Source: Escherichia typing phage 1. Taken from it: DNA of 64,000 nt. The notes beneath the pieces were generated by a model. The model saw only the letters and a list, made by a program, of their open reading frames with translations, was not told where the DNA came from and did no database searches. The DNA is taken from sequence record KP869100; one strand, written 5' to 3'. A program made the position numbers and the translations under genes. Below are positions 1,022-11,794 of the stretch, in pieces; the stretch's first letter is position 1; every line of letters starts with the position of its first letter.

Positions 1022-2560
1022 TTTTTATAAAAATTTTATCGGTTGTTCCAACCTCTGGGTCACCATCATATGTGAATAAAATATCTATCCTTCTTAACAA
1101 CCTTCTTAATCTTACTCTCTATATATAGTTATATAGTACTATATAGTGTCTTAGTAACTATCTAGTGGTCTTAATAGCCCCTCTGTATAACCCTTCTAAA
1201 TAGCCCTCTAAACACTCTTCTAACAAGCCTTCTTAACAACCTATACAATCACCTTAACCATCTCTCTATACGCTCTTAGAAGCCTCTATACACCCCTTAA
1301 TCTCTATGTCAGCTATGATACTCTCTATAGGTGTTCACTAGGCACTACTAAGCCTCTATATAGACTGTTTTAACAAACTTAACAGGAATATCTTTACAGA
1401 CCTTATCTCACAAGGTCTAACACGGTACTAACAAGGTATCTTATAAGCCTGTTTCTACCTGTATTTTTAAAAGACTGTATAAGTAATTATTCAGAATTTT
1501 AAAATTTTTATAAAATAAGACTGTCAAGTCATTTTTTAGGGTCTTTGAAGGAACTCAAAAATATCTGTAGAAGATGTATATCTGCTTGGTAGCCCTTAAC
1601 AGCTCCCTTACAAGTACTTTGCAAAATTTTAAAATATCCTTAACAACATCTTAACAACTCTCTCAAGCTCTTAACATCTCTTCAAAGGTCTTAACAGTTT
1701 CTTAACAGAACTAACAAGAACTTAACAGTTTTCTAACAAGCTTTGGTAGGGCTTTACAGAATCTTAACAGATAACTAACAAGAGCTAACAAGTTAATTTT
1801 AAAGAGTTATTTTGTTAAGATAATTAACAAGTTCCTAACAAGTGTTTAATCTTTTTAACAAGCTATTAACATGGTCACTATCTCTTTTCTTATCGTTCCC
1901 TTTCTCTCTTAGTGATTCTCTAAACATACCTTTTAAAAGCTCTCTATAGCTCCTTGTAAGCTCTTTTAAGCCTCTTCCTAGTATCTACCCCTCAACTGTA
2001 TGGATAGCTCTTTATAGGGCTTTACAGGAGCTTTTAAGGCTATGTCAAAGGTTCTTACAAGGCTTTTACGTGGTCTTAACAGAGATTTAACAAGGGGCTA
2101 ACAAGTTGCTAACAAGTGCCTTAAAAGCATAACTATGTAGGGATTGTTAAGAAATTGTTAAGGGGGCTAGCATTTACGTAACTTTTAAGCTACTTCAAAG
2201 TAACTTTATAGCCCCTATAACATACTTTTAAGACACTAACAAGCCCTTTTTAGTAGTTCACAAGATAGCTAACGAGATGATAAAGCTCACACCCTTATAA
2301 GATTCTTTTAAGGCTCTAGAAAGCTCTATAAAGGGCTTTTTAGAGTGGGTTAATATGATTGCTTAAGTTAGGTTGATAAGGCTGTTATAGGGCTTTATAG
2401 AGCGTTTAAATGGTTGCCCTTCCCTTTCGGGTTATGGGCTTATATTTAAGTTGATTTGATAAGGGGTTATAGAGTAAGCTATAGAGTTATTGCTTTTAAG
2501 GTACGGGATAGATTCTAGGAAGGAAAGGAAAGGGATTGTATAGAGTCTCTTTATAGACGT
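1022..2560. repeat. non-coding repeat-dense region (oriented yTAACAr and CTATAG-type short repeats)
   Basis: No credible ORF; more than 25 same-orientation copies of CTTAACA/CTAACAAG-type cores, 15 of them within 1640-1880, plus many CTCTATAG/TTATAGGG copies; bounded by terminators. Confidence 0.7.
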
Positions 2561-2623: not shown

Positions 2624-2872
2624 TTAGTTGTAACCTTGTTTGCTGTAGTACAGAGAGACAATCAAGTCACCCCAATAATGGTAGTGAGATTCCTCGTTTA
2701 TGGCTTCTTTTACGGCATCTTTCCAGAAGTCATCAGTAGGGTTATAATCTGGTATCACCTGCTGAATCAGCATTTTGATAAGGTCAAAGGTGTTATCTGT
2801 TCCACCGATATCGAATTTTGCATCAAGTTGGTGGCAGCCATAAGCATTAACAGTTACGCGGATAGTTGACAT
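2624..2872 (-). CDS. hypothetical small protein
   Basis: 82-aa ORF; start directly downstream of a type-A cassette SD. Confidence 0.5.
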   Translation of the reverse strand: MSTIRVTVNAYGCHQLDAKFDIGGTDNTFDLIKMLIQQVIPDYNPTDDFWKDAVKEAINEESHYHYWGDLIVSLYYSKQGYN

Positions 2873-2966
2873 AATTTAGAATCTCCAGTTTAGGACTTTA
2901 TTTAGTGGGGAAGGTCATTCCCTCCCCGTTGTTTAGTAATTTACTGCATATTGGCGTAGGTTGCAA
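2873..2966 (-). promoter_or_regulatory. type-A cassette A1 (promoter TTGCAA-N17-TAAATT + G/C hairpin + SD)
   Basis: -35 at 2961-2966 and -10 at 2938-2943 (minus strand), then CAACGGGGAGGGAATGACCTTCCCC leader and GGAGAT SD before the ATG at 2872. Confidence 0.55.
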
Positions 2967-3204
2967 GCCTTTTTTCGTTGTATTTTGTCAGAATTTCACA
3001 AGATAGAACATCGTACATTGTAACCGCTTTGCTTTTGTCGAGGTCAAAAAAGCCAAATGCTTTACCATCTTTGAATCCGACAACTTCGTAAGATTCTTTA
3101 ATGATTTCACCATTGAACAAATCACTTTCGATACGGTGAAACAACGCTACGTCTTCTTTGTCAGTTGCAATCTGCAATAGTGTGGTTAATTCTACGTGTT
3201 CCAT
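2941..3204 (-). CDS. hypothetical small protein
   Basis: Track ORF 2941..3309 trimmed to the ATG at 3202-3204 because the upstream part is occupied by cassette A2. Confidence 0.45.
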   Translation of the reverse strand: MEHVELTTLLQIATDKEDVALFHRIESDLFNGEIIKESYEVVGFKDGKAFGFFDLDKSKAVTMYDVLSCEILTKYNEKRLATYANMQ

Positions 3205-3297
3205 TTTTGAATCTCCTAGTTTAAGGACTTTACTTAGTGGGAAGGTTAATCCCTCCCCGTTGATTGACAATTTACAGACTTTTGATTGTCTCGTCAA
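3205..3297 (-). promoter_or_regulatory. type-A cassette A2 (TTGACG-N17-TAAATT + hairpin + SD)
   Basis: -35 at 3292-3297, -10 at 3269-3274 (minus strand), conserved leader and TAGGAGATTC SD. Confidence 0.55.
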
Positions 3298-3802
3298 TAT
3301 CTTTTTCAATATCTTTTAAAGTTTTTTCTAAGTTCTTGATATTGAAGGATAAGCCTTCACCGAGAGTCTTAGAATAACCGCTAGGACGTAAATCATAAAG
3401 GCCAATTTGTTCTACATTGGAGAGGTTGACCATTTCACCGCTTACATCATAAGCTATTGATACGGTGTTTTCAGGGGCTTTATAGAACTTGTTAAGATTC
3501 TTGATAGAACGTTCATAAGCCATTTTATAACCATTTAAAAGGTCTTTAACGTGGTTGCGAACGTTTTTACACTCATCTAAGTAAATACCTAAGAATAGCG
3601 GTAACAGTTCTGCTACAGCTTGCATAAAGTGAGATACTACAACAGTAGAAACATTACGACGATGTATATAATAAGCCCCGTTTTCTGATTTAGTGATAGT
3701 TGCAAAGTGTACACCGTTGCAACGAAATTCGAAGGTATCTTTAACGGGTTTAGTCATAACGTTAGATGAGCGAATGTAGTTGATAGCTTGAAACTTGTTC
3801 AT
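3272..3802 (-). CDS. hypothetical protein
   Basis: 176-aa ORF preceded by cassette A3; no recognised domain. Confidence 0.55.
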   Translation of the reverse strand: MNKFQAINYIRSSNVMTKPVKDTFEFRCNGVHFATITKSENGAYYIHRRNVSTVVVSHFMQAVAELLPLFLGIYLDECKNVRNHVKDLLNGYKMAYERSIKNLNKFYKAPENTVSIAYDVSGEMVNLSNVEQIGLYDLRPSGYSKTLGEGLSFNIKNLEKTLKDIEKDIDETIKSL

Positions 3803-3895
3803 TTTGAATCTCCTAGTTTAAGGACTTTACTTAGTGGGGAAGGTCATTCCCTCCCCGTTGTTTAGTACTATACTTGTTTTGATTTGCCTTTGCAA
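3803..3895 (-). promoter_or_regulatory. type-A cassette A3 (TTGCAA-N17-TATAGT + hairpin + SD)
   Basis: -35 at 3890-3895, -10 at 3867-3872 (minus strand), conserved GGGGAAGGTCATTCCCTCCCC hairpin and SD. Confidence 0.55.
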
Positions 3896-4023
3896 GCAAT
3901 TTTTTAAGTTTATCTATAAAGAATCTATTAAGTGAATCCCTTTTAGATAACCCCCTCGAACAAAGTTACCAATGTCAATGGGTATTGTCAACACTTTTTT
4001 AAAAGTTTTTTGTAAGTTATTGA

Positions 4024-4365
4024 TTAACTTATGAAGATTTTTTCAGGCTTTACATAGCTGATACGCTGACTTTTTAGCAGGTCATCCCAGATTAAAGCGG
4101 CAATATGTGCATAACCGGATTCACGTAAAAGCTTCATTGTTTTACTTCTCGTTTCAAAACGGCTTGCGTAGTATTCACTGTTCAAGGTCGTTTTATTCCC
4201 TTCGTTATCTGTATGGATGATTTGCATCACTTGAAAGGGGCTTACACCCTCGCCTTTGTTCCACTGTTCAAAGTATTTTAGGCACTGCATAGGTGACATC
4301 TTATCACTTACTTGAGTTGACCAAGATGAGCCAGCTTTATCGGTAATTACGGTTACATAAGCCAT
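4024..4365 (-). CDS. hypothetical protein
   Basis: 113-aa ORF; preceded by type-B cassette B1. Confidence 0.55.
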   Translation of the reverse strand: MAYVTVITDKAGSSWSTQVSDKMSPMQCLKYFEQWNKGEGVSPFQVMQIIHTDNEGNKTTLNSEYYASRFETRSKTMKLLRESGYAHIAALIWDDLLKSQRISYVKPEKIFIS

Positions 4366-4450
4366 TTTAGAATCTCCAGTTTAGGATTGAGTGGTAAAGC
4401 TCTTTATCTGGGGCTTACTATACAGACTAATAAGCCCCATGTAAAGTACT
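4366..4450 (-). promoter_or_regulatory. type-B cassette B1 (AAAGTACTTT palindrome + GGGGCTTA/TAAGCCCC hairpin + conserved leader + SD)
   Basis: Perfect 8-bp inverted repeat GGGGCTTA..TAAGCCCC at 4410-4438; leader AGATAAAGAGCTTTACCACTCAATCCTAAACTGGAGATTC precedes the ATG. Confidence 0.55.
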
Positions 4451-4699
4451 TTAAGCGTCTTTATATTCTATCTCTGTGCACTCACCTTTTACTAGCTCAA
4501 AGGTCCAAATAATTCGTTTATACTCAATCACTACTACAGTAACAAGGTCAGTCCTCTTCTCATTGGTTTTAAAGTCTATTGTGTGGGTATACTCATAACT
4601 AGTCTTATCCTTAATTTCCCCGTAGCGTCTACACTCTTTATAGACTTCATCCATTAAGCCATTGCTAACCATGTTTTTTAGTTGAGTTTTAGTATACAT
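4451..4699 (-). CDS. hypothetical small protein
   Basis: 82-aa ORF; preceded by cassette A4. Confidence 0.5.
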   Translation of the reverse strand: MYTKTQLKNMVSNGLMDEVYKECRRYGEIKDKTSYEYTHTIDFKTNEKRTDLVTVVVIEYKRIIWTFELVKGECTEIEYKDA

Positions 4700-4795
4700 T
4701 TTTTGGAATCTCCTAGTTTAAGGACTTTACTTAGTGGGGAAGGTCATTCCCTCCCCGTTGATTGATAATTTACAGACTTTTATCAGGCTTGTCTA
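4700..4795 (-). promoter_or_regulatory. type-A cassette A4 (TAGACA-N17-TAAATT + hairpin + SD)
   Basis: -35 at 4790-4795, -10 at 4767-4772 (minus strand), conserved hairpin and SD. Confidence 0.55.
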
Positions 4796-5026
4796 GTCTT
4801 TTTCAATGATAATTTCATATTGACCATCGACACTGTCGAAATAGATTCCTTCGTCATCTTCTGTCTTAAAGTAACATTGTATATCATCACTGGCGGGGTA
4901 GTCTTGTCTTGCTATCTGGCAAACTTGAATAGCATTTTCTTTACTTCCTGTAAACTCTTCAAGCCCTTTAAAGTCACATGAATGGCCGTTACAAATGGAA
5001 AGGATGAGATAAATGGTTGTAAGCAT
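4793..5026 (-). CDS. small protein with hydrophobic N-terminus (possibly secreted)
   Basis: 77-aa ORF; N-terminus MLTTIYLILSICNG is signal-peptide-like. Confidence 0.45.
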   Translation of the reverse strand: MLTTIYLILSICNGHSCDFKGLEEFTGSKENAIQVCQIARQDYPASDDIQCYFKTEDDEGIYFDSVDGQYEIIIEKD

Positions 5027-5036
5027 GATTTAAGCC

Positions 5037-5058
5037 CTCTAAAAGCCCCTGTAAGGGG
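5037..5058 (-). terminator. putative intrinsic terminator
   Basis: CCCCT-GTA-AGGGG hairpin followed on the minus strand by CTTTT, immediately after the stop at 5093. Confidence 0.4.
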
Positions 5059-5092
5059 TTAATCAGTGTTTATAAGGTGAATGTATAGGTTT

Positions 5093-5635
5093 TTAGAAAA
5101 AGACCTTTAAATCACTCTCTACAATGTTTTCTGTCAGTGTATCCATGATGTCACAAAAAACCTGAATACTGTCGGATTGTTGGATACTTTTAGCAAGTAG
5201 CTCCAATGTTTCATCAAGATAATTTAAATTTGGGTTATCCAGTGAAGGGAGACAAAAAGGTGAATACATAGCGTTGAACTCTGTTGTATAGACCTTTTTA
5301 ATCCAATTTACATCAAAGTACTCTGTAAAGCTTGCTATATTTGACATGTTATCACAAGAATAATCATCATTTAGCTCATCCTCTGGAATGTCAAGTTCTA
5401 AGATAACAATATTTTGAGTTTTCATCTGAAAAGCTGCCGTGATAGTGGCATTTCCTAGAGCTTGCTGGATACCTTCCGATGCTATCTCTTCCTCATCATC
5501 ACCATAGAGTTTATTTTCTGGGTACACGTAAAAATTGCCGTCCATATCCGAACAATTCCATACACCTGATGGTTTATCACCGTTATTAATCAGGTTAATA
5601 AAGTTTTCTTGAGTAGTACCGTGAAAGCATTTCAT
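5093..5635 (-). CDS. highly acidic protein (DNA-mimic-like composition)
   Basis: 180-aa ORF, very rich in D/E with few K/R (runs such as GDDEEEIASEG, DIPEDELNDD); preceded by cassette B2. Confidence 0.55.
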   Translation of the reverse strand: MKCFHGTTQENFINLINNGDKPSGVWNCSDMDGNFYVYPENKLYGDDEEEIASEGIQQALGNATITAAFQMKTQNIVILELDIPEDELNDDYSCDNMSNIASFTEYFDVNWIKKVYTTEFNAMYSPFCLPSLDNPNLNYLDETLELLAKSIQQSDSIQVFCDIMDTLTENIVESDLKVFF

Positions 5636-5742
5636 TTTGAATCTCCTAGTTTAAGGATTTAGTGGTAAAGCTCTTTATCTGGGGCTTACTTTATCGAACT
5701 ATAAGCCCCTTGTAAAGTACTTTATCAGTTAATTTTTGACAA
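5636..5742 (-). promoter_or_regulatory. type-B cassette B2 (TTGTCA-N17-TACTTT + hairpin + SD)
   Basis: -35 at 5737-5742, -10 at 5714-5719 (minus strand); GGGGCTTA..TAAGCCCC hairpin; conserved leader and SD. Confidence 0.55.
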
Positions 5743-5926
5743 CTTTTAAAACTGCAAGATAACCTAAGCAATAAGAATCACCGAAGAGAGTTCTACCCAT
5801 GAAAGAATCATCTTTGATATCCTTTGCAGTGACTGTTTTTTCTACGCCGTGGGAAAGAACTACATCACCAACTTTAATGTCTTTGATGTGCGTGGTTTCA
5901 ATGGTTAAACCGTTGATAATAGCCAT
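5729..5926 (-). CDS. hypothetical small protein
   Basis: 65-aa ORF; preceded by cassette A5. Confidence 0.45.
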   Translation of the reverse strand: MAIINGLTIETTHIKDIKVGDVVLSHGVEKTVTAKDIKDDSFMGRTLFGDSYCLGYLAVLKVVKN

Positions 5927-6020
5927 TTTGAATCTCCTAGTTTAAGGACTTTACTTAGTGGGGAAGGTCATTCCCTCCCCGTTGATGTGTAATTTAATCT
6001 ATCTAAAAATCAGTGTCAAT
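5927..6020 (-). promoter_or_regulatory. type-A cassette A5 (TTGACA-N17-TAAATT + hairpin + SD)
   Basis: -35 at 6015-6020, -10 at 5992-5997 (minus strand); promoter part identical to cassette A6. Confidence 0.6.
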
Positions 6021-6027
6021 AAAATTT

Positions 6028-6432
6028 TTAGAGTTCTGCATAAATTGCGTCGCAGATGTCACGAAAGTCATGATTTGCCAAATTACGTTGTAACCAAGTG
6101 GCAAAGAAATCAGCGATTGCAAAATTAGCATCATACTCAACAGATAGCCACACTTTCACGGCAAATCTAAACATTTTCAAGTCTAACTCTTTATTCATTA
6201 CCTTAGATTTGCCTAACATGTCGACCATTTCATATTGTGCACCGTCTAGCGTGATACCTGCTGCAACGTCAGCCAATGAGTTTTTTACGTTTTCAACGTC
6301 TAAGATAACGCTTTGAATCTTTCCGATAATGTTGTGCAATGTTTCATCCGGTGCTGATGATGTAATAACATTGATTCGATTAACGGTTAAACGTGCTTTT
6401 AAGATTGACAACTCACGATTATTAATAGCCAT
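6028..6432 (-). CDS. hypothetical protein
   Basis: 134-aa ORF; preceded by cassette B3. Confidence 0.55.
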   Translation of the reverse strand: MAINNRELSILKARLTVNRINVITSSAPDETLHNIIGKIQSVILDVENVKNSLADVAAGITLDGAQYEMVDMLGKSKVMNKELDLKMFRFAVKVWLSVEYDANFAIADFFATWLQRNLANHDFRDICDAIYAEL

Positions 6433-6517
6433 TTTAGAATCTCCAATTTAGGATTGAGTGGTAAAGCTCTTTATCTGGGGCTTACTGTACAGACTAATAA
6501 GCCCCCTGTAAAGTACT
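6433..6517 (-). promoter_or_regulatory. type-B cassette B3
   Basis: GGGGCTTA..TAAGCCCC hairpin, AAAGTACTTT palindrome, conserved leader and SD. Confidence 0.5.
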
Positions 6518-6790
6518 TTATACTAAATGCAGTTTTTTACCTTTTACTATGATGTAACTTGATGTGCTATTGCTACATACATCCTGATAAATTCTGCGCA
6601 AACGTCCTTCATAGTATACTTTCCAGCTAGTTGGAATCTTTTTGCCGTATCCGGTAGCAGTTTTTTGGAGTCCTGCGACTTGCCAATCTAAGATATGTTG
6701 CTCAGCCTGTAAATCCTCAAAGTGCATCACACCGTCTACATAGTGACGTAGAGTGACATTTAAAGTGCGACCGTTGTTAGTAGTATACAT
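6518..6790 (-). CDS. hypothetical small protein
   Basis: 90-aa ORF; preceded by cassette A6. Confidence 0.5.
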   Translation of the reverse strand: MYTTNNGRTLNVTLRHYVDGVMHFEDLQAEQHILDWQVAGLQKTATGYGKKIPTSWKVYYEGRLRRIYQDVCSNSTSSYIIVKGKKLHLV

Positions 6791-6883
6791 TTTAGAATCT
6801 CCTAGTTTAAGGACTTTATTTAGTGGGGTGTTTATTGCCTCCCCGTTGATGTGTAATTTAATCTATCTAAAAATCAGTGTCAA
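6791..6883 (-). promoter_or_regulatory. type-A cassette A6 (TTGACA-N17-TAAATT + variant hairpin + SD)
   Basis: -35 at 6878-6883, -10 at 6855-6860 (minus strand); hairpin interior differs from other A copies but the GGGG/CCCC stem is kept. Confidence 0.55.
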
Positions 6884-7212
6884 CAGTTTTGTTTTCGTTT
6901 GCTCAACTCTTGAACAATTACAGTATGATAGTCTTTTAAGTCACTAATATTTAAAGCATTTATCAGAGAATTATAATCATCGACTAATTGAAAATCATCT
7001 TTGAAAATGTCGCTGATTTGATAAGTTCTCGCCCTGAATCTGAAGCTCATTTCTAACCGCTTTAATTGTTCATCGCTCAACCGCTCTAGAAAGCTCATTA
7101 CAAGGCTATTGCTAACCTGTTGTGTGATTGCCTTATTTGCTAGATTATAGGCTTTATATGCCTTATAGAGCGCGAAAATGGCAATGATTGCAGTGATACC
7201 AGTCATTAACAT
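6880..7212 (-). CDS. small membrane-anchored protein
   Basis: 110-aa ORF; N-terminal hydrophobic segment GITAIIAIFALY. Confidence 0.45.
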   Translation of the reverse strand: MLMTGITAIIAIFALYKAYKAYNLANKAITQQVSNSLVMSFLERLSDEQLKRLEMSFRFRARTYQISDIFKDDFQLVDDYNSLINALNISDLKDYHTVIVQELSKRKQNC

Positions 7213-7502
7213 GGTGCTTCCTCTTTACGTGATACTTTGCCATTTACAGTTATCTCATAAGAATCTAGTAAATCGCTTTTAGATTTGACAGGACTTTTAA
7301 GAGTATCATCATAGATATTAACTTGCAATACAGGTTTTTTATACTCCCTGCAACTATTCCATAAGCAAATCACTACACGACGACCTTTTATTTTGCCGTG
7401 TAACCATTCCATAACATCATGGCTATTTCTTGATGTTTCAATGAAATCAATTTTGTTGAGTAATTTGCTTAGATTTTCACGAACTTTATTTGATAATTTC
7501 AT
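7206..7502 (-). CDS. hypothetical small protein
   Basis: 98-aa ORF; preceded by cassette B4; 7-nt overlap with the downstream gene. Confidence 0.5.
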   Translation of the reverse strand: MKLSNKVRENLSKLLNKIDFIETSRNSHDVMEWLHGKIKGRRVVICLWNSCREYKKPVLQVNIYDDTLKSPVKSKSDLLDSYEITVNGKVSRKEEAPC

Positions 7503-7590
7503 TTTTGAATCTCCAGTTTAGGATTGAGTGGTAAAGCTCTTTATCTGGGGCTTAAGATACCAACTTTTAAGCCCCTTGTAAAGTACTTTA
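7503..7590 (-). promoter_or_regulatory. type-B cassette B4
   Basis: 9-bp inverted repeat GGGGCTTAA..TTAAGCCCC; palindrome and conserved leader/SD. Confidence 0.5.
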
Positions 7591-7881
7591 TCAGTTAATT
7601 TTCAGCTTTGCATAACCTCTCATTGTACGAATTGGAGATGTTAAGGCTACGCGTCTAATATATGCCTTTTTCGTGTATACATTTGTCTTTCCGATAGTGT
7701 TTACACATGTAAAAAGATTTATTGGTGAATTTTTTAACTTCAACTGTTTATCAGCCTTCACACCCCATCTTACAGCAGATTGTTTTCCGTTGTCAACCAC
7801 TTTCCCGCCTAACTTTTTCGCCATGATGCGAGCGTCATCACGAGTTTTTACAGGAATTACAACGTTTTTGATAGTAGCCAT
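7591..7881 (-). CDS. hypothetical small basic protein
   Basis: 96-aa ORF, Lys/Arg-rich; preceded by cassette B5. Confidence 0.5.
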   Translation of the reverse strand: MATIKNVVIPVKTRDDARIMAKKLGGKVVDNGKQSAVRWGVKADKQLKLKNSPINLFTCVNTIGKTNVYTKKAYIRRVALTSPIRTMRGYAKLKIN

Positions 7882-7969
7882 TTTTGAATCTCCAATTTAG
7901 GATTTAGTGGTAAAGCTCTTTATCTGGGGCTTACTTTATCGAACTATAAGCCCCTTGTAAAGTACTTTA
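7882..7969 (-). promoter_or_regulatory. type-B cassette B5
   Basis: Near-identical to B2 (same hairpin GGGGCTTACTTTATCGAACTATAAGCCCC). Confidence 0.5.
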
Positions 7970-8350
7970 TCAGTTAATTTTGAAGATTGTTACATAACCA
8001 TCACTACCGATTATTTGAGACACTCCAGCTTTTTCTACTTGATAGCCCATATTTTCAAGATGATAAACAGCATCATCGTAACCATATGCGCCACCCTGAT
8101 AACGTCTCTTATCGCATCTTATCAGGTTTTTACCACGTCCAGCAAGTGCATGTAAAATGGCTTTTTCACTTGAAAGAGTACCATCTAGCATTGTCGCCGT
8201 GTAATGGTTAATTTTATTCCCATTGATATCATACTTAAAATTAAACGAGTGAACAACAATAACGTTACCTTTAAAATTCTCATCAAGTGACTTCTCCAGT
8301 GCGTTGCGAAAGTTGTCTTTGTTGATGAATTTAGGTGCACGATATGCCAT
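7970..8350 (-). CDS. hypothetical protein
   Basis: 126-aa ORF; preceded by cassette B6; no recognised domain. Confidence 0.5.
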   Translation of the reverse strand: MAYRAPKFINKDNFRNALEKSLDENFKGNVIVVHSFNFKYDINGNKINHYTATMLDGTLSSEKAILHALAGRGKNLIRCDKRRYQGGAYGYDDAVYHLENMGYQVEKAGVSQIIGSDGYVTIFKIN

Positions 8351-8441
8351 TTTTGAATCTCCTAGTTTAAGGGTTGATTTGGTAAAGCTCTTTATCTGGG
8401 GCTTAAGATATCAGCTTTTAAGCCCCTTGTAAAGTACTTTA
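8351..8441 (-). promoter_or_regulatory. type-B cassette B6
   Basis: GGGGCTTAA..TTAAGCCCC hairpin; palindrome; conserved leader/SD. Confidence 0.5.
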
Positions 8442-8648
8442 TTAGGCATCGTAGTAATAAACTGCTGTCTGTCTTATGTACTTTCTTGTATTTCTTGTAA
8501 GGTAGCAATTAGAGTTTATAGCTGTTTCTACATAGTTGCAATAGTCAGCCTCTGATATTCTAGACCATGCGCCACATACTTGCATGTAAAAACGTTTTAC
8601 CTTTGTGTTAACGTTAGTTGTAACCATCAATTCACGACTATAAAGCAT
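8442..8648 (-). CDS. hypothetical small protein
   Basis: 68-aa ORF downstream of the promoter at 8698-8726. Confidence 0.4.
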   Translation of the reverse strand: MLYSRELMVTTNVNTKVKRFYMQVCGAWSRISEADYCNYVETAINSNCYLTRNTRKYIRQTAVYYYDA

Positions 8649-8697
8649 TTTCGATTCTCCAGTTTAGGAAGTGGGCTTGCTTGCCCGTCTGATGCAA

Positions 8698-8726
8698 ATA
8701 GTACGTAAACTTGTTTGGCGTGTCAA
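8698..8726 (-). promoter_or_regulatory. sigma70-like promoter TTGACA-N17-TACTAT
   Basis: -35 (rc TGTCAA) at 8721-8726, -10 (rc ATAGTA) at 8698-8703, 17-nt spacer; followed by a short hairpin and GGAGAA SD. Confidence 0.5.
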
Positions 8727-8894
8727 CGGTTTTTATTAAATATTTTTTGTAAGGTTGGGAAATGAACGGGCGCGCACGACTACCACAAAACAGAACACAA
8801 ATCAAGAATTATTTTTCAACCCGCTACAAATTTTTCTCTTGACTTTTGGGGAGAGGTGGAGTAAGAGGGGGAGAGGGGTTGGTCTGGCTCTCTA

Positions 8895-9090
8895 TAAAAA
8901 CCTACCTGCACGATTCTAAAATGATTTTTCTTGCCCGACCTGAGCGGGGTCTGCACGTTTTGAAAATGAAAAAGCTCTTTGGAGATTACCTGCACAGTTT
9001 GAAAATGAATTTTCTCTTTGGAGTTCAAAATTCTCTCTACAGATTTCTCTACAGAACTCTACCTGCACAATCCTGAAATGAAAAAGCCCT
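8895..9090. repeat. four direct repeats (CCTGCAC-N-TGAAAATGA) in a GC-richer non-coding island
   Basis: acctgcacgattctaaaatga, tctgcacgttttgaaaatga, acctgcacagtttgaaaatga, acctgcacaatcctgaaatga; surrounding G-rich tract ggggagaggtggagtaagagggggagagggg. Confidence 0.6.
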
Positions 9091-9154
9091 CCTTACCTGA
9101 AAAATTTACCAGATAAAGAAGGCTTAGTCTATTGTGAATATTATACAGAGTTTC

Positions 9155-9940
9155 TTAGTTCTTTGCGTCTAAGAAGGTAACTTCTGGTGAAGAGAAGACC
9201 GTCTCGATATCCTCATCAGTTCTTGCATAAATATATGTATCTGCATCACTGCCAAATGTTACGGCTATCCTGTGATTGCTCTTCGACAGGTGGGTAACTA
9301 GAGCGTTACTTAGAGACATCTTCTCAACCGGAGGGTTACTTTGATGTATCTTACCTTTTCTTCGTCTGAAGAGGGTAACTGTATCATCTTTGAACGTTAC
9401 TACACCTGCAAAGTATTCTGGTTCACAGTAGTTATTCCAACCTGAGCGTAACTTGTGGTACATCTCTCCTTCGTAGACATACAGATAAACATCTACACTC
9501 TTCATCACCTGATTAATGATAACTGTGACGGCTTGAGGGTCAAGTCCACCGATACCTGCACCAATCATAGGTAAACCAACCTTCTTCAACTGATTAACTT
9601 CACAGTATCTGTTAAGCTGTTTCAAAGATGACTCTAAAGCACTGTATCGGGCATCTTTACCAGTCTTAAGCTGAGTGTAAAGGTTAGCTATACGACCTTG
9701 TTTTAAACGTGCTACAGAGAAATTACCCAGTAAATTTTCACAGGGTTTGTGTCCTATACCACCTGCATACAGATAAACTTCTGTATCGGTCTCATATGCT
9801 TTTGGGTAAAGTTTAGAAATCTTGTCAGCGATACCTGCACCCATTAAATTCATACAGTTGCAACCGTGACCGATGATGTCAAACTTACCTTTATCAAATG
9901 CGGCAAAGATATCACCATTAATTATTTTTACAATACCCAT
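9155..9940 (-). CDS. macro-domain protein (ADP-ribose binding/processing) with about 90-aa C-terminal extension
   Basis: 261 aa; GDIFAAF..FDIIGHGCNCMNLMGAGIA and GLPMIGAGIGGL resemble the two macro-domain signature blocks. Confidence 0.55.
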   Translation of the reverse strand: MGIVKIINGDIFAAFDKGKFDIIGHGCNCMNLMGAGIADKISKLYPKAYETDTEVYLYAGGIGHKPCENLLGNFSVARLKQGRIANLYTQLKTGKDARYSALESSLKQLNRYCEVNQLKKVGLPMIGAGIGGLDPQAVTVIINQVMKSVDVYLYVYEGEMYHKLRSGWNNYCEPEYFAGVVTFKDDTVTLFRRRKGKIHQSNPPVEKMSLSNALVTHLSKSNHRIAVTFGSDADTYIYARTDEDIETVFSSPEVTFLDAKN

Positions 9941-11756: not shown

Positions 11757-11782
11757 AAATGAAAAAGGCTCCCGAAGGAGCC
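11757..11782 (-). terminator. intrinsic terminator (GGCTCC-CGAA-GGAGCC)
   Basis: Perfect 6-bp stem with CGAA loop at 11767-11782, T-run on the minus strand. Confidence 0.6.
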
Positions 11783-11794
11783 TGTATCTTAACC

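Follow-up and report, generated by a model that had tools for sequence, protein, structure and literature searches.

In phage lambda, the replication origin consists of four direct iterons with A-tract bends that are bound by the O protein, and its activity needs transcription. The primary origin of T7 is made of promoters 1.1A and 1.1B and the region downstream of them, ~15% from the left end, while T4 oriE associates an early promoter and iterons with transcripts on both strands. Phages are also known to carry pseudo-ToxI decoys. In T5, 7.9% of the genome is transferred first, and transfer stops in an untranslated region of repeats whose conservation exceeds that of the surrounding open reading frames (ORFs) (bioRxiv 10.1101/866236). 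Here we describe a gene-free gap of 506 bases (8649-9154), hereafter the island, in Escherichia typing phage 1 (record KP869100); the whole stretch analyzed, called the window, is 64 kb long, coordinates are window positions, and the genome was taken as ~88 kb. The island lies between the start of a 68-amino-acid (68-aa) cassette gene and the stop of a macro-domain gene, and holds a rightward promoter-like element (P-right), a G-rich tract, four direct repeats (U1 to U4), and a terminator. Since it is kept across the phage subfamily, we propose that it is a functional, cis-acting non-coding control region conserved since the common ancestor of the Ounavirinae. The reading that we favor for its function, and hold only tentatively, is that of a transcription-activated replication origin for the T7-like replisome of the phage. 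For Felix O1, the replication origin, the temporal control of transcription, and the mode of DNA entry were given as unknown in the genome paper (PMC3185647), and the literature that we searched, including the Bas63 knockout-library and T5-entry work, held no description of this island or of a Felixounavirus transcriptome or origin.

Among these systems, the island most resembles the promoter-plus-iteron origins, while agreeing in full with none of the membership definitions tested. Iteron origins carry at least three direct repeats of 17 to 22 bp at one locus, and four units with a conserved core of ~23 bp were found here. With the lambda origin, the island shares four ~20-bp repeats in the same orientation, A/T tracts, a single locus, and a position downstream of what would be an activating promoter. 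However, lambda iterons are internally palindromic, close and regular, and lie inside the initiator gene beside a clear AT-rich region, whereas the island has an irregular spacing of 37 to 75 nucleotides (nt), no known initiator gene, and no AT-rich block that stands out. As at the T7 origin, a promoter, here predicted and weak in the window, points inward near the left genome end into a non-coding region, and Felix O1 encodes a T7/SP6-like DNA polymerase and a gp4-like primase-helicase, while lacking its own RNA polymerase and any described origin (PMC3185647). T7 differs in that it uses its own RNA polymerase and no sequence-specific repeats, in place of the host sigma-70-type promoter and four conserved repeats of the island. 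At T4 oriE, too, an early promoter accompanies clustered direct repeats, and transcripts of both strands traverse the region; these transcripts, however, encode RepEA/RepEB, whereas the island is without a conserved ORF and shares no sequence similarity with it. The T5 stop signal (Repeat Region 3, left terminal repeat) is, like the island, untranslated, repeat-rich, better conserved than nearby ORFs, and located ~8% from the genome end, where it bounds an early host-takeover gene block. It is built of eight DnaA boxes paired in 131-bp inverted repeats, with many palindromes, within a 10-kb terminal repeat, in contrast to the four direct repeats, the absence of DnaA boxes in the window phage, and the 0.6-kb terminal repeat 7 kb away that characterize the island. 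ToxI loci also place a non-coding direct-repeat array after a promoter, and their repeats (~36 to 45 nt) are transcribed; these repeats are head-to-tail with a fixed period and a wholly conserved unit, while in the island the period varies from 37 to 75 nt and only 23 nt are conserved. A type III antitoxin-like repeat RNA was ruled out on this inconstant repeat length, together with the lack of a ToxI match in Rfam and of a bacterial counterpart.

The four repeats are same-orientation copies of TGCAC-N6-AAAATGA-(A5/T5), with the consensus (T)AYCTGCAC-RWTTYK-AAAATGA followed by A5 or T5 and a conserved core of ~23 bp. With at most one mismatch allowed, TGCACN6AAAATGA matches four times on both strands of the 64 kb, always within 8907-9081 (175 nt), against 0.81 scattered matches in shuffled sequence; a variant with a 5-nt spacer gave no match in the 64 kb. 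The four direct repeats that an earlier reading of the window, made from its sequence only, had pointed out were thereby recovered. The A-run of U4 and the U-tail of the macro terminator are complementary to each other, so that the last repeat is fused to this terminator. Start-to-start spacings are 45/39/73, 43/39/73, 45/41/75, or 39/37/37 nt depending on the phage, i.e., spacers vary between 37 and 75 nt around the cores. Conserved cores of ~23 bp in variable spacers would argue for independent protein sites rather than for a processed RNA repeat.

A blastn search with 8740-9090 matched 256 phage records, 237 of which cover at least 80% of the query, and the loci of relatives were fetched through the macro protein. 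The same island was found in Felixounavirus, in SUSP2 (Suspvirus), and in Moogle-like phages (Mooglevirus), and a syntenic one in the Erwinia phage Ea_Tu10 (Kolesnikvirus) and in two Erwinia-phage-like IMG/VR contigs (L052 and L057). The Erwinia order is leftward cassette promoter, rightward promoter, G-rich stretch, four repeats (ATGCAC-N6-AAAATGA, 37 to 39 nt apart), terminator, and macro gene; the succession of leftward promoter, P-right, G-rich tract, repeats, and terminator is common to the four genera. U1 is orthologous to the Erwinia unit 2, and AAAATGATTTTTCTTGCC(C/A)GACCT is almost the same in both. Nucleotide identity to the window is higher in the island than in the macro gene for SUSP2 (86% versus 74%) and for Moogle-like phages (73 to 80% versus 71%). 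In the Erwinia phage, the array retains 67.5% identity, versus 56% for the macro gene, and the macro protein is 37% identical. The cassette gene to the left of the island differs between relatives. As the island is both non-coding and at least as conserved as the macro gene, it is under purifying selection and not a scar. The sequence-only reading had considered the scar of an acquired segment and asked whether the island is an indel among relatives: 256 phage records, four genera, and a conservation equal to or above that of the flanking gene contradict the former, and in the comparative alignment the island is syntenic, only the 55-nt tract at 8849-8903 having alternative forms.

The array also persists where its neighborhood has changed. 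In two IMG/VR contigs (2974574300 and 3300045988_024527), another gene stands in the place of the macro gene and three repeats remain; the left half (promoters, G tract, U1, and U2) is kept, a new spacer lies beyond U2, and the final unit is still fused to a terminator, which is a different one. The similarity of phages ECML-1 and phiWec174 ends at the same point, window ~8969, which marks a recombination breakpoint inside the array.

The island is non-coding. Two ORFs overlap the repeats, and the sequence-only reading had held that they are not genes, a view borne out by the comparison of 23 distinct relatives: substitutions are spread evenly over the codon positions (32/31/33 for the plus-strand ORF and 19/18/22 for the minus-strand ORF), and the repeat-made ORF is broken by a frameshifting 2-nt deletion in one relative (L008), by a stop in another (L015), and by several stops in the Moogle-like group. 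Different genera use different reading frames over the island, and the variable repeat spacings imply that no frame is kept. A protein-coding gene was therefore ruled out by the flat codon-position counts, the frameshift, the stops, and the frame-breaking spacing. A known or structured RNA was ruled out as well, since the covariance models of Rfam 15 gave no match inside 8650-9154 at E values up to 10, and RNAalifold found on both strands no conserved fold except the minus-strand terminator. Several relatives are annotated with hypothetical proteins on the repeats, i.e., Mordin_126 (L085 12085-12273) and others in FSL SP-010, UAB_69, typing phage 12, and ULIM3/8/9, among others. Because the frame changes from one genus to another and is interrupted in close relatives, these annotations are almost certainly spurious.

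The least variable part of the island is the 50 nt at 8800-8849, in which an A/T-rich core is enclosed by two divergent -35-like boxes that make up an inverted repeat (GTCAAGA ... TCTTGAC). Substitutions per 10 nt amount to 1, 3, 4, 3, and 3 in this segment, against 8 to 20 in the rest of the island, and its conservation exceeds that of the cassette promoter. P-right, a sigma-70-like element whose -35 box and upstream A/T-rich region lie within these 50 nt, is oriented opposite to every flanking gene and into the repeats. Between its -35 box and U1, the 55-nt tract exists in two alternative forms: form A, the G tract, in the window, wV8-like phages, SUSP2, and Moogle-like phages, with a looser version in Erwinia phages, and form B (ATTTCCAGATGTGGTAGCCTTGTGAGAAATGGCGACATCCCCACCTGCACCCACC) in nine Felixounavirus loci among those fetched (L009-L034 set), which were taken to be the Felix O1 lineage. 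The TTGACT of P-right is invariant, and a TA-initial hexamer follows it at exactly 17 nt whichever form is present, as TAAGAG or TAATAG in form A and TGnTAGCCT in form B. Since this hexamer is kept across the two forms, the constrained feature would be the promoter rather than the tract itself. P-right was missed by the promoter scan in the window because its -10 box ends in G, while the Erwinia-phage counterpart, TTGACG-N18-TATACT, scored 10/12 and is near consensus. Leftward, the TTGACA-N17-TACTAT promoter already proposed from the sequence was recovered by the scan, and its -35 box and the downstream TGATGCAAATA are kept in all aligned relatives. A weak second leftward element is a putative promoter; Felixounavirus, Suspvirus, and Moogle-like phages keep the block CGACTACCACAAAACAGAAC..AATCAAGA, their -35 box reading TTGACT, and it is absent as such from Erwinia phages.

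Altogether, these features led us to consider the following model, in which the firing of P-right, the binding of a protein at the repeats, and replication initiation as the outcome are inferred steps. Early in infection, host RNA polymerase would start at P-right and transcribe against all neighboring genes, first across the G-rich tract and then across the four repeats of 23 bp. The transcript could open the duplex and/or prime the T7-type DNA polymerase, and the G-rich non-template strand would perhaps stabilize the RNA-DNA hybrid. The four repeats, each with its A5 or T5 tract, would be the recognition sites of a phage or host protein that marks the site. In favor of such an origin are the unique clustered array downstream of a conserved promoter with nothing to express, and the absence of an RNA signature (no conserved fold but the terminator, no Rfam match). 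Several observations weigh against it. The -10 box of P-right is poor in the window (TAAGAG) and failed the scan, the repeat spacing shows no helical phasing, and no candidate initiator protein was found; as flanking genes vary between relatives, none of them is linked to the island as an initiator. No distinct AT-rich unwinding block was seen in 40-nt bins (72% AT in the A/T-rich core upstream of P-right, 57 to 72% in the array, 62% in the genome), and a GC-skew switch as a mark of the origin was ruled out, none being present at the island. In the Felix O1 lineage, the G tract, which the R-loop part of the model requires, is swapped for ATTTCCAGATGTGGTAGCC...CCCACCTGCACCCACC, which is not G-rich. 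Finally, no G-quadruplex (four G runs of at least 3, loops of 1 to 7) exists on either strand of the window, where one run of the G tract is GGTGG and breaks the motif; 10 form-A relatives have the canonical motif, and neither form B nor the Erwinia phage does.

That P-right might instead drive a non-coding RNA gene is possible but doubtful. P-right would then make an early plus-strand RNA of ~200 to 250 nt or longer, or an antisense RNA into the macro 3' end, and its four unstructured UGCAC-N6-AAAAUGA modules would titrate an RNA-binding protein, e.g., a repressor of translation or an endoribonuclease of the RegB kind that targets early cassette mRNAs. The promoter and the repeats are always co-oriented, with the repeats always downstream, the free repeat spacing suits RNA motifs, and the imperfect plus-strand terminator hairpin could allow antisense read-through into macro. 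The Felixounavirus modules moreover resemble the uniform ribosome-binding regions of the cassette genes (CCTTAAACTGGAGATTCWAAAATG), from which the 12-mer GATTCTAAAATG recurs in U1 and TGGAGATT in the U2/U3 flanks, and a RegB-like gene is annotated in a relative, phage Mordin (Mordin_137), for which the uniform GGAG context of the cassette genes could be a target. Yet the Erwinia modules are like those of Felixounavirus and unlike the ribosome-binding regions of the Erwinia phage itself, i.e., the mimicry does not co-evolve, and ribosome-binding-site mimicry was ruled out as unconserved in Erwinia phages. The same holds for the GGA/GGAG motifs beside the modules, by which a CsrA-type GGA sponge was ruled out too. 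Such an RNA would also be without conserved secondary structure or covariation, Rfam match, or plus-strand terminator (none resulted from the scan of the island), and its 5' region would be wholly replaced in the Felix O1 lineage. It is unlikely, although not markedly so, that the island is a boundary or regulator array by which the early cassette module at the genome end is insulated from the rII-macro transcription unit, which is long and runs leftward. Incoming transcription would be stopped at the terminator, the convergent P-right and a repeat-bound protein would block read-through or time the early-to-middle switch, and the C-rich minus-strand copy of the G tract would be a Rho-loading site. 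The island does have the upstream unit's terminator directly on one side and the first cassette promoter on the other, the fusion of last repeat and terminator survives replacement of the upstream gene, and the tails of the repeats are identical to the usual terminator tail of the phage (CTTTTTCATTT, again at 11757-11766). The form A minus-strand RNA is C-rich and G-poor like Rho-loading sites; in form B, however, the minus strand is G-rich, and a Rho site would therefore not be a general feature. At the remaining module boundaries of the window a terminator suffices, conservation this deep seems more than an insulator would need, and the motif occurs at no other promoter in the 64 kb, which also ruled out a general phage promoter/operator motif.

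The position of the island recalls T5-like DNA entry, in which the early-module end (~7 kb, ~8% of the genome) would enter first and pause at the repeats until an early protein releases it. Such a checkpoint is very unlikely. The distance to the mapped terminal-repeat end (7.1 to 7.6 kb, ~8% of the 88-kb genome) is of the expected order and similar (~7 to 8 kb) in Erwinia, Citrobacter, and SUSP2 phages, and small genes with predicted strong promoters of the host type make up the intervening module; this distance, however, may just reflect conserved gene content. The Erwinia-phage repeats match the DnaA box at 8/9 positions, but singly and directly, whereas the T5 boxes are paired in long inverted repeats, and the window repeats are not DnaA boxes within one mismatch. 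Two-step transfer has not been reported for these contractile-tail phages, and in a distant phage (L053) similar repeats abut a TGTTAA array with no early module in between. If the checkpoint were true, two-step genome delivery would not be peculiar to T5 but an ancestral strategy that phage groups without close relationship have in common. A functionless remnant, i.e., decayed tandem duplicates of a terminator tail/ribosome-binding junction kept by chance or recent ancestry, is the least credible reading. The units do look like the terminator tail nearby and like the ribosome-binding regions of the cassette genes, which suggests where the array came from, but the island is conserved at least like the adjacent gene, out to relatives with 37% protein identity, and repeat count, order, and orientation are kept in four genera, so that the comparison of island and macro identities nearly excludes it. 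Whatever its function, the replication-origin reading included, the island is the clearest conserved cis-element candidate in the 64-kb window, and being small, unique, and easily mutated, it offers a precise handle on origin, transcription timing, and DNA entry in phages related to Felix O1, which are widely used in Salmonella and E. coli typing, biocontrol, and therapy. In practice, engineers should spare it, annotators should drop the repeat-made ORFs, and assemblers should expect breaks at the G tract.

Table 1. Features of the island and of its two flanking genes (window positions)
Feature	Position	Strand	Detail
68-aa cassette gene	8442-8648	minus	rightmost cassette gene, left of the island
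Predicted sigma-70 early promoter	8698-8726	minus	TTGACA-N17-TACTAT; scan 10/12 (8726-8698); serves cassette gene 8442-8648
GC-rich stretch	8768-8778		gggcgcgcacg
Weak second leftward promoter-like element	8777-8805	minus	TTGATT (8805-8800), N17 ending TGG, TAGTCG (8782-8777)
Least variable 50 nt	8800-8849		AATCAAGAATTATTTTTCAAyCCGCTACAAATTTTTCTnTTGACTTTT
ORF	8816-9028	minus	TTG start
P-right, rightward promoter-like	8839-8867	plus	TTGACT (8839-8844), N17, TAAGAG (8862-8867); predicted start ~8873-8876
ORF	8846-9076	plus	TTG start
Polypurine G tract	8848-8878	plus	GGGGAGAGGTGGAGTAAGAGGGGGAGAGGGG; left part of the variable 55-nt tract 8849-8903
U1	8903-8930	plus	TACCTGCAC GATTCT AAAATGA TTTTTC; 8903-8924 = TACCTGCACGATTCTAAAATGA
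U2	8949-8975	plus	GTCTGCAC GTTTTG AAAATGA AAAAGC; 8949-8969 = GTCTGCACGTTTTGAAAATGA
U3	8987-9014	plus	TACCTGCAC AGTTTG AAAATGA ATTTTC; 8987-9008 = TACCTGCACAGTTTGAAAATGA
Three tandem 12-mers	9034-9069	plus	TCTCTACAGATT / TCTCTACAGAAC / TCTACCTGCACA; run into U4
U4	9060-9086	plus	TACCTGCAC AATCCTG AAATGA AAAAGC; 9060-9081 = TACCTGCACAATCCTGAAATGA
Rho-independent terminator of macro gene / rII-side transcription unit	9084-9125	minus	17-bp stem, tail TTTCATTTCA; scan
261-aa macro-domain gene	9155-9940	minus	right of the island

The window is a Felixounavirus genome segment whose closest match is E. coli O157 typing phage 15 (98.7 to 100% identity), and all genes around the island are on the minus strand. 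The stem of the macro terminator is complete on the minus-strand RNA only, its G-U pairs becoming C-A mismatches on the plus strand. The features listed by the sequence-only reading (repeats, G tract, gggcgcgcacg, ORFs, and leftward promoter) are all present where it placed them, while the rightward promoter, the fusion of U4 to the terminator, and the distance of ~7 kb from the terminal repeat were absent from it. Its description of the island as GC-richer holds for a slight rise (0.41 to 0.43 against ~0.385 for the window), which is marginal given that the adjoining macro gene reaches 0.42. The true compositional oddity is a flip in the sign of GC skew, positive in the island (+0.14 to +0.24) against a negative background, and due to the G tract.

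Other candidates were set aside. No unit of the window or of a Moogle-like phage lies within one mismatch of the DnaA box TTWTNCACA, and a DnaA-box array was thus ruled out for the window phage. Searching the two-unit pattern in 185,579 species-representative genomes returned unrelated tandem repeats only, E. coli genomes gave no repeat match, and plasmids gave two short sub-threshold matches, in unrelated Gram-positive ones; host mimicry or a bacterial counterpart was ruled out by these genome and plasmid searches. Likenesses to sigma-54, Fur, ArgR, integration host factor (IHF), and T7-primase sites, inspected by eye, were unconvincing.

Concerning the genome end, a 618-bp direct terminal repeat was experimentally reported for the Felixounavirus UAB_69 (PMC11350853, Fig. 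S1), in agreement with the 608-bp terminal repeat obtained for UAB_Phi87 by Bal31 mapping (PMC4837284). The UAB_69 repeat aligns to window 1586-2162 at 86% identity, which places the physical genome end inside the window. An array of TGTTAR motifs (TGTTAA/TGTTAG) occupies 1400-2300, with up to 16 per 300 nt, and is confined to this part of the window. For Ea_Tu10, Mordin, and SUSP2, the distance to the island was taken from presumed terminal repeats with inferred boundaries. The DNA from the terminal repeat to the island carries small minus-strand genes, many with an upstream promoter-like site, and at least 13 cassette genes (2870-8650, minus) share a near-identical 25-nt ribosome-binding region, CCTTAAACT(A)GGAGATTCWAAAATG.

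Several public assemblies stop or start at the G tract (EC106, Andreotti, KhF1, and four IMG/VR contigs). The EC106 record begins inside the tract, that of Andreotti just past it with a 19-nt inverted copy of the downstream segment, and KhF1 has a 377-bp end overlap with many Ns; of the IMG/VR contigs, one continues into Nextera adapter sequence, and a second is a chimera with E. coli mukB. These breaks probably reflect assembly failure at low-complexity G-rich DNA together with strain polymorphism in metagenomes. As records start in the G tract, a genome end or packaging site at the island was considered and ruled out, the terminal repeat lying 6.5 kb leftward.

Among the more distant records, an IMG/VR contig (3300045988_063805; L053 600-1020) stems from a distant phage with a 148-aa macro gene that is ~46 to 50% identical over tblastx segments. 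The same intergenic position holds ~13 TGTTAA motifs followed directly by four to five TATGCAC-N6-AAAATGA units, so that the TGTTAA array and the repeat units, adjacent there, are 6.5 kb apart in Felixounavirus. This Felixounavirus region is also contained, with 89.5% identity, in the 147-kb "Staphylococcus phage SA1" record (GU169904.1), and a single record labelled Campylobacter matches too; both look chimeric or mislabelled. Within the window, a second terminator (11757-11783, minus) has the same tail as the macro terminator and nearly identical sequence over the next ~17 nt (CTTTTTCATTTCAGGAgATTGT), leading into the ribosome-binding site and the start of the next gene, which hints that the repeat units may have derived from such a terminator/ribosome-binding-site junction. 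The promoter-like sites of the cassette genes often read TTGACA or TTTACA, and the cassette run recalls the mobile promoter/stem-loop cassettes of T4-type hyperplastic regions.

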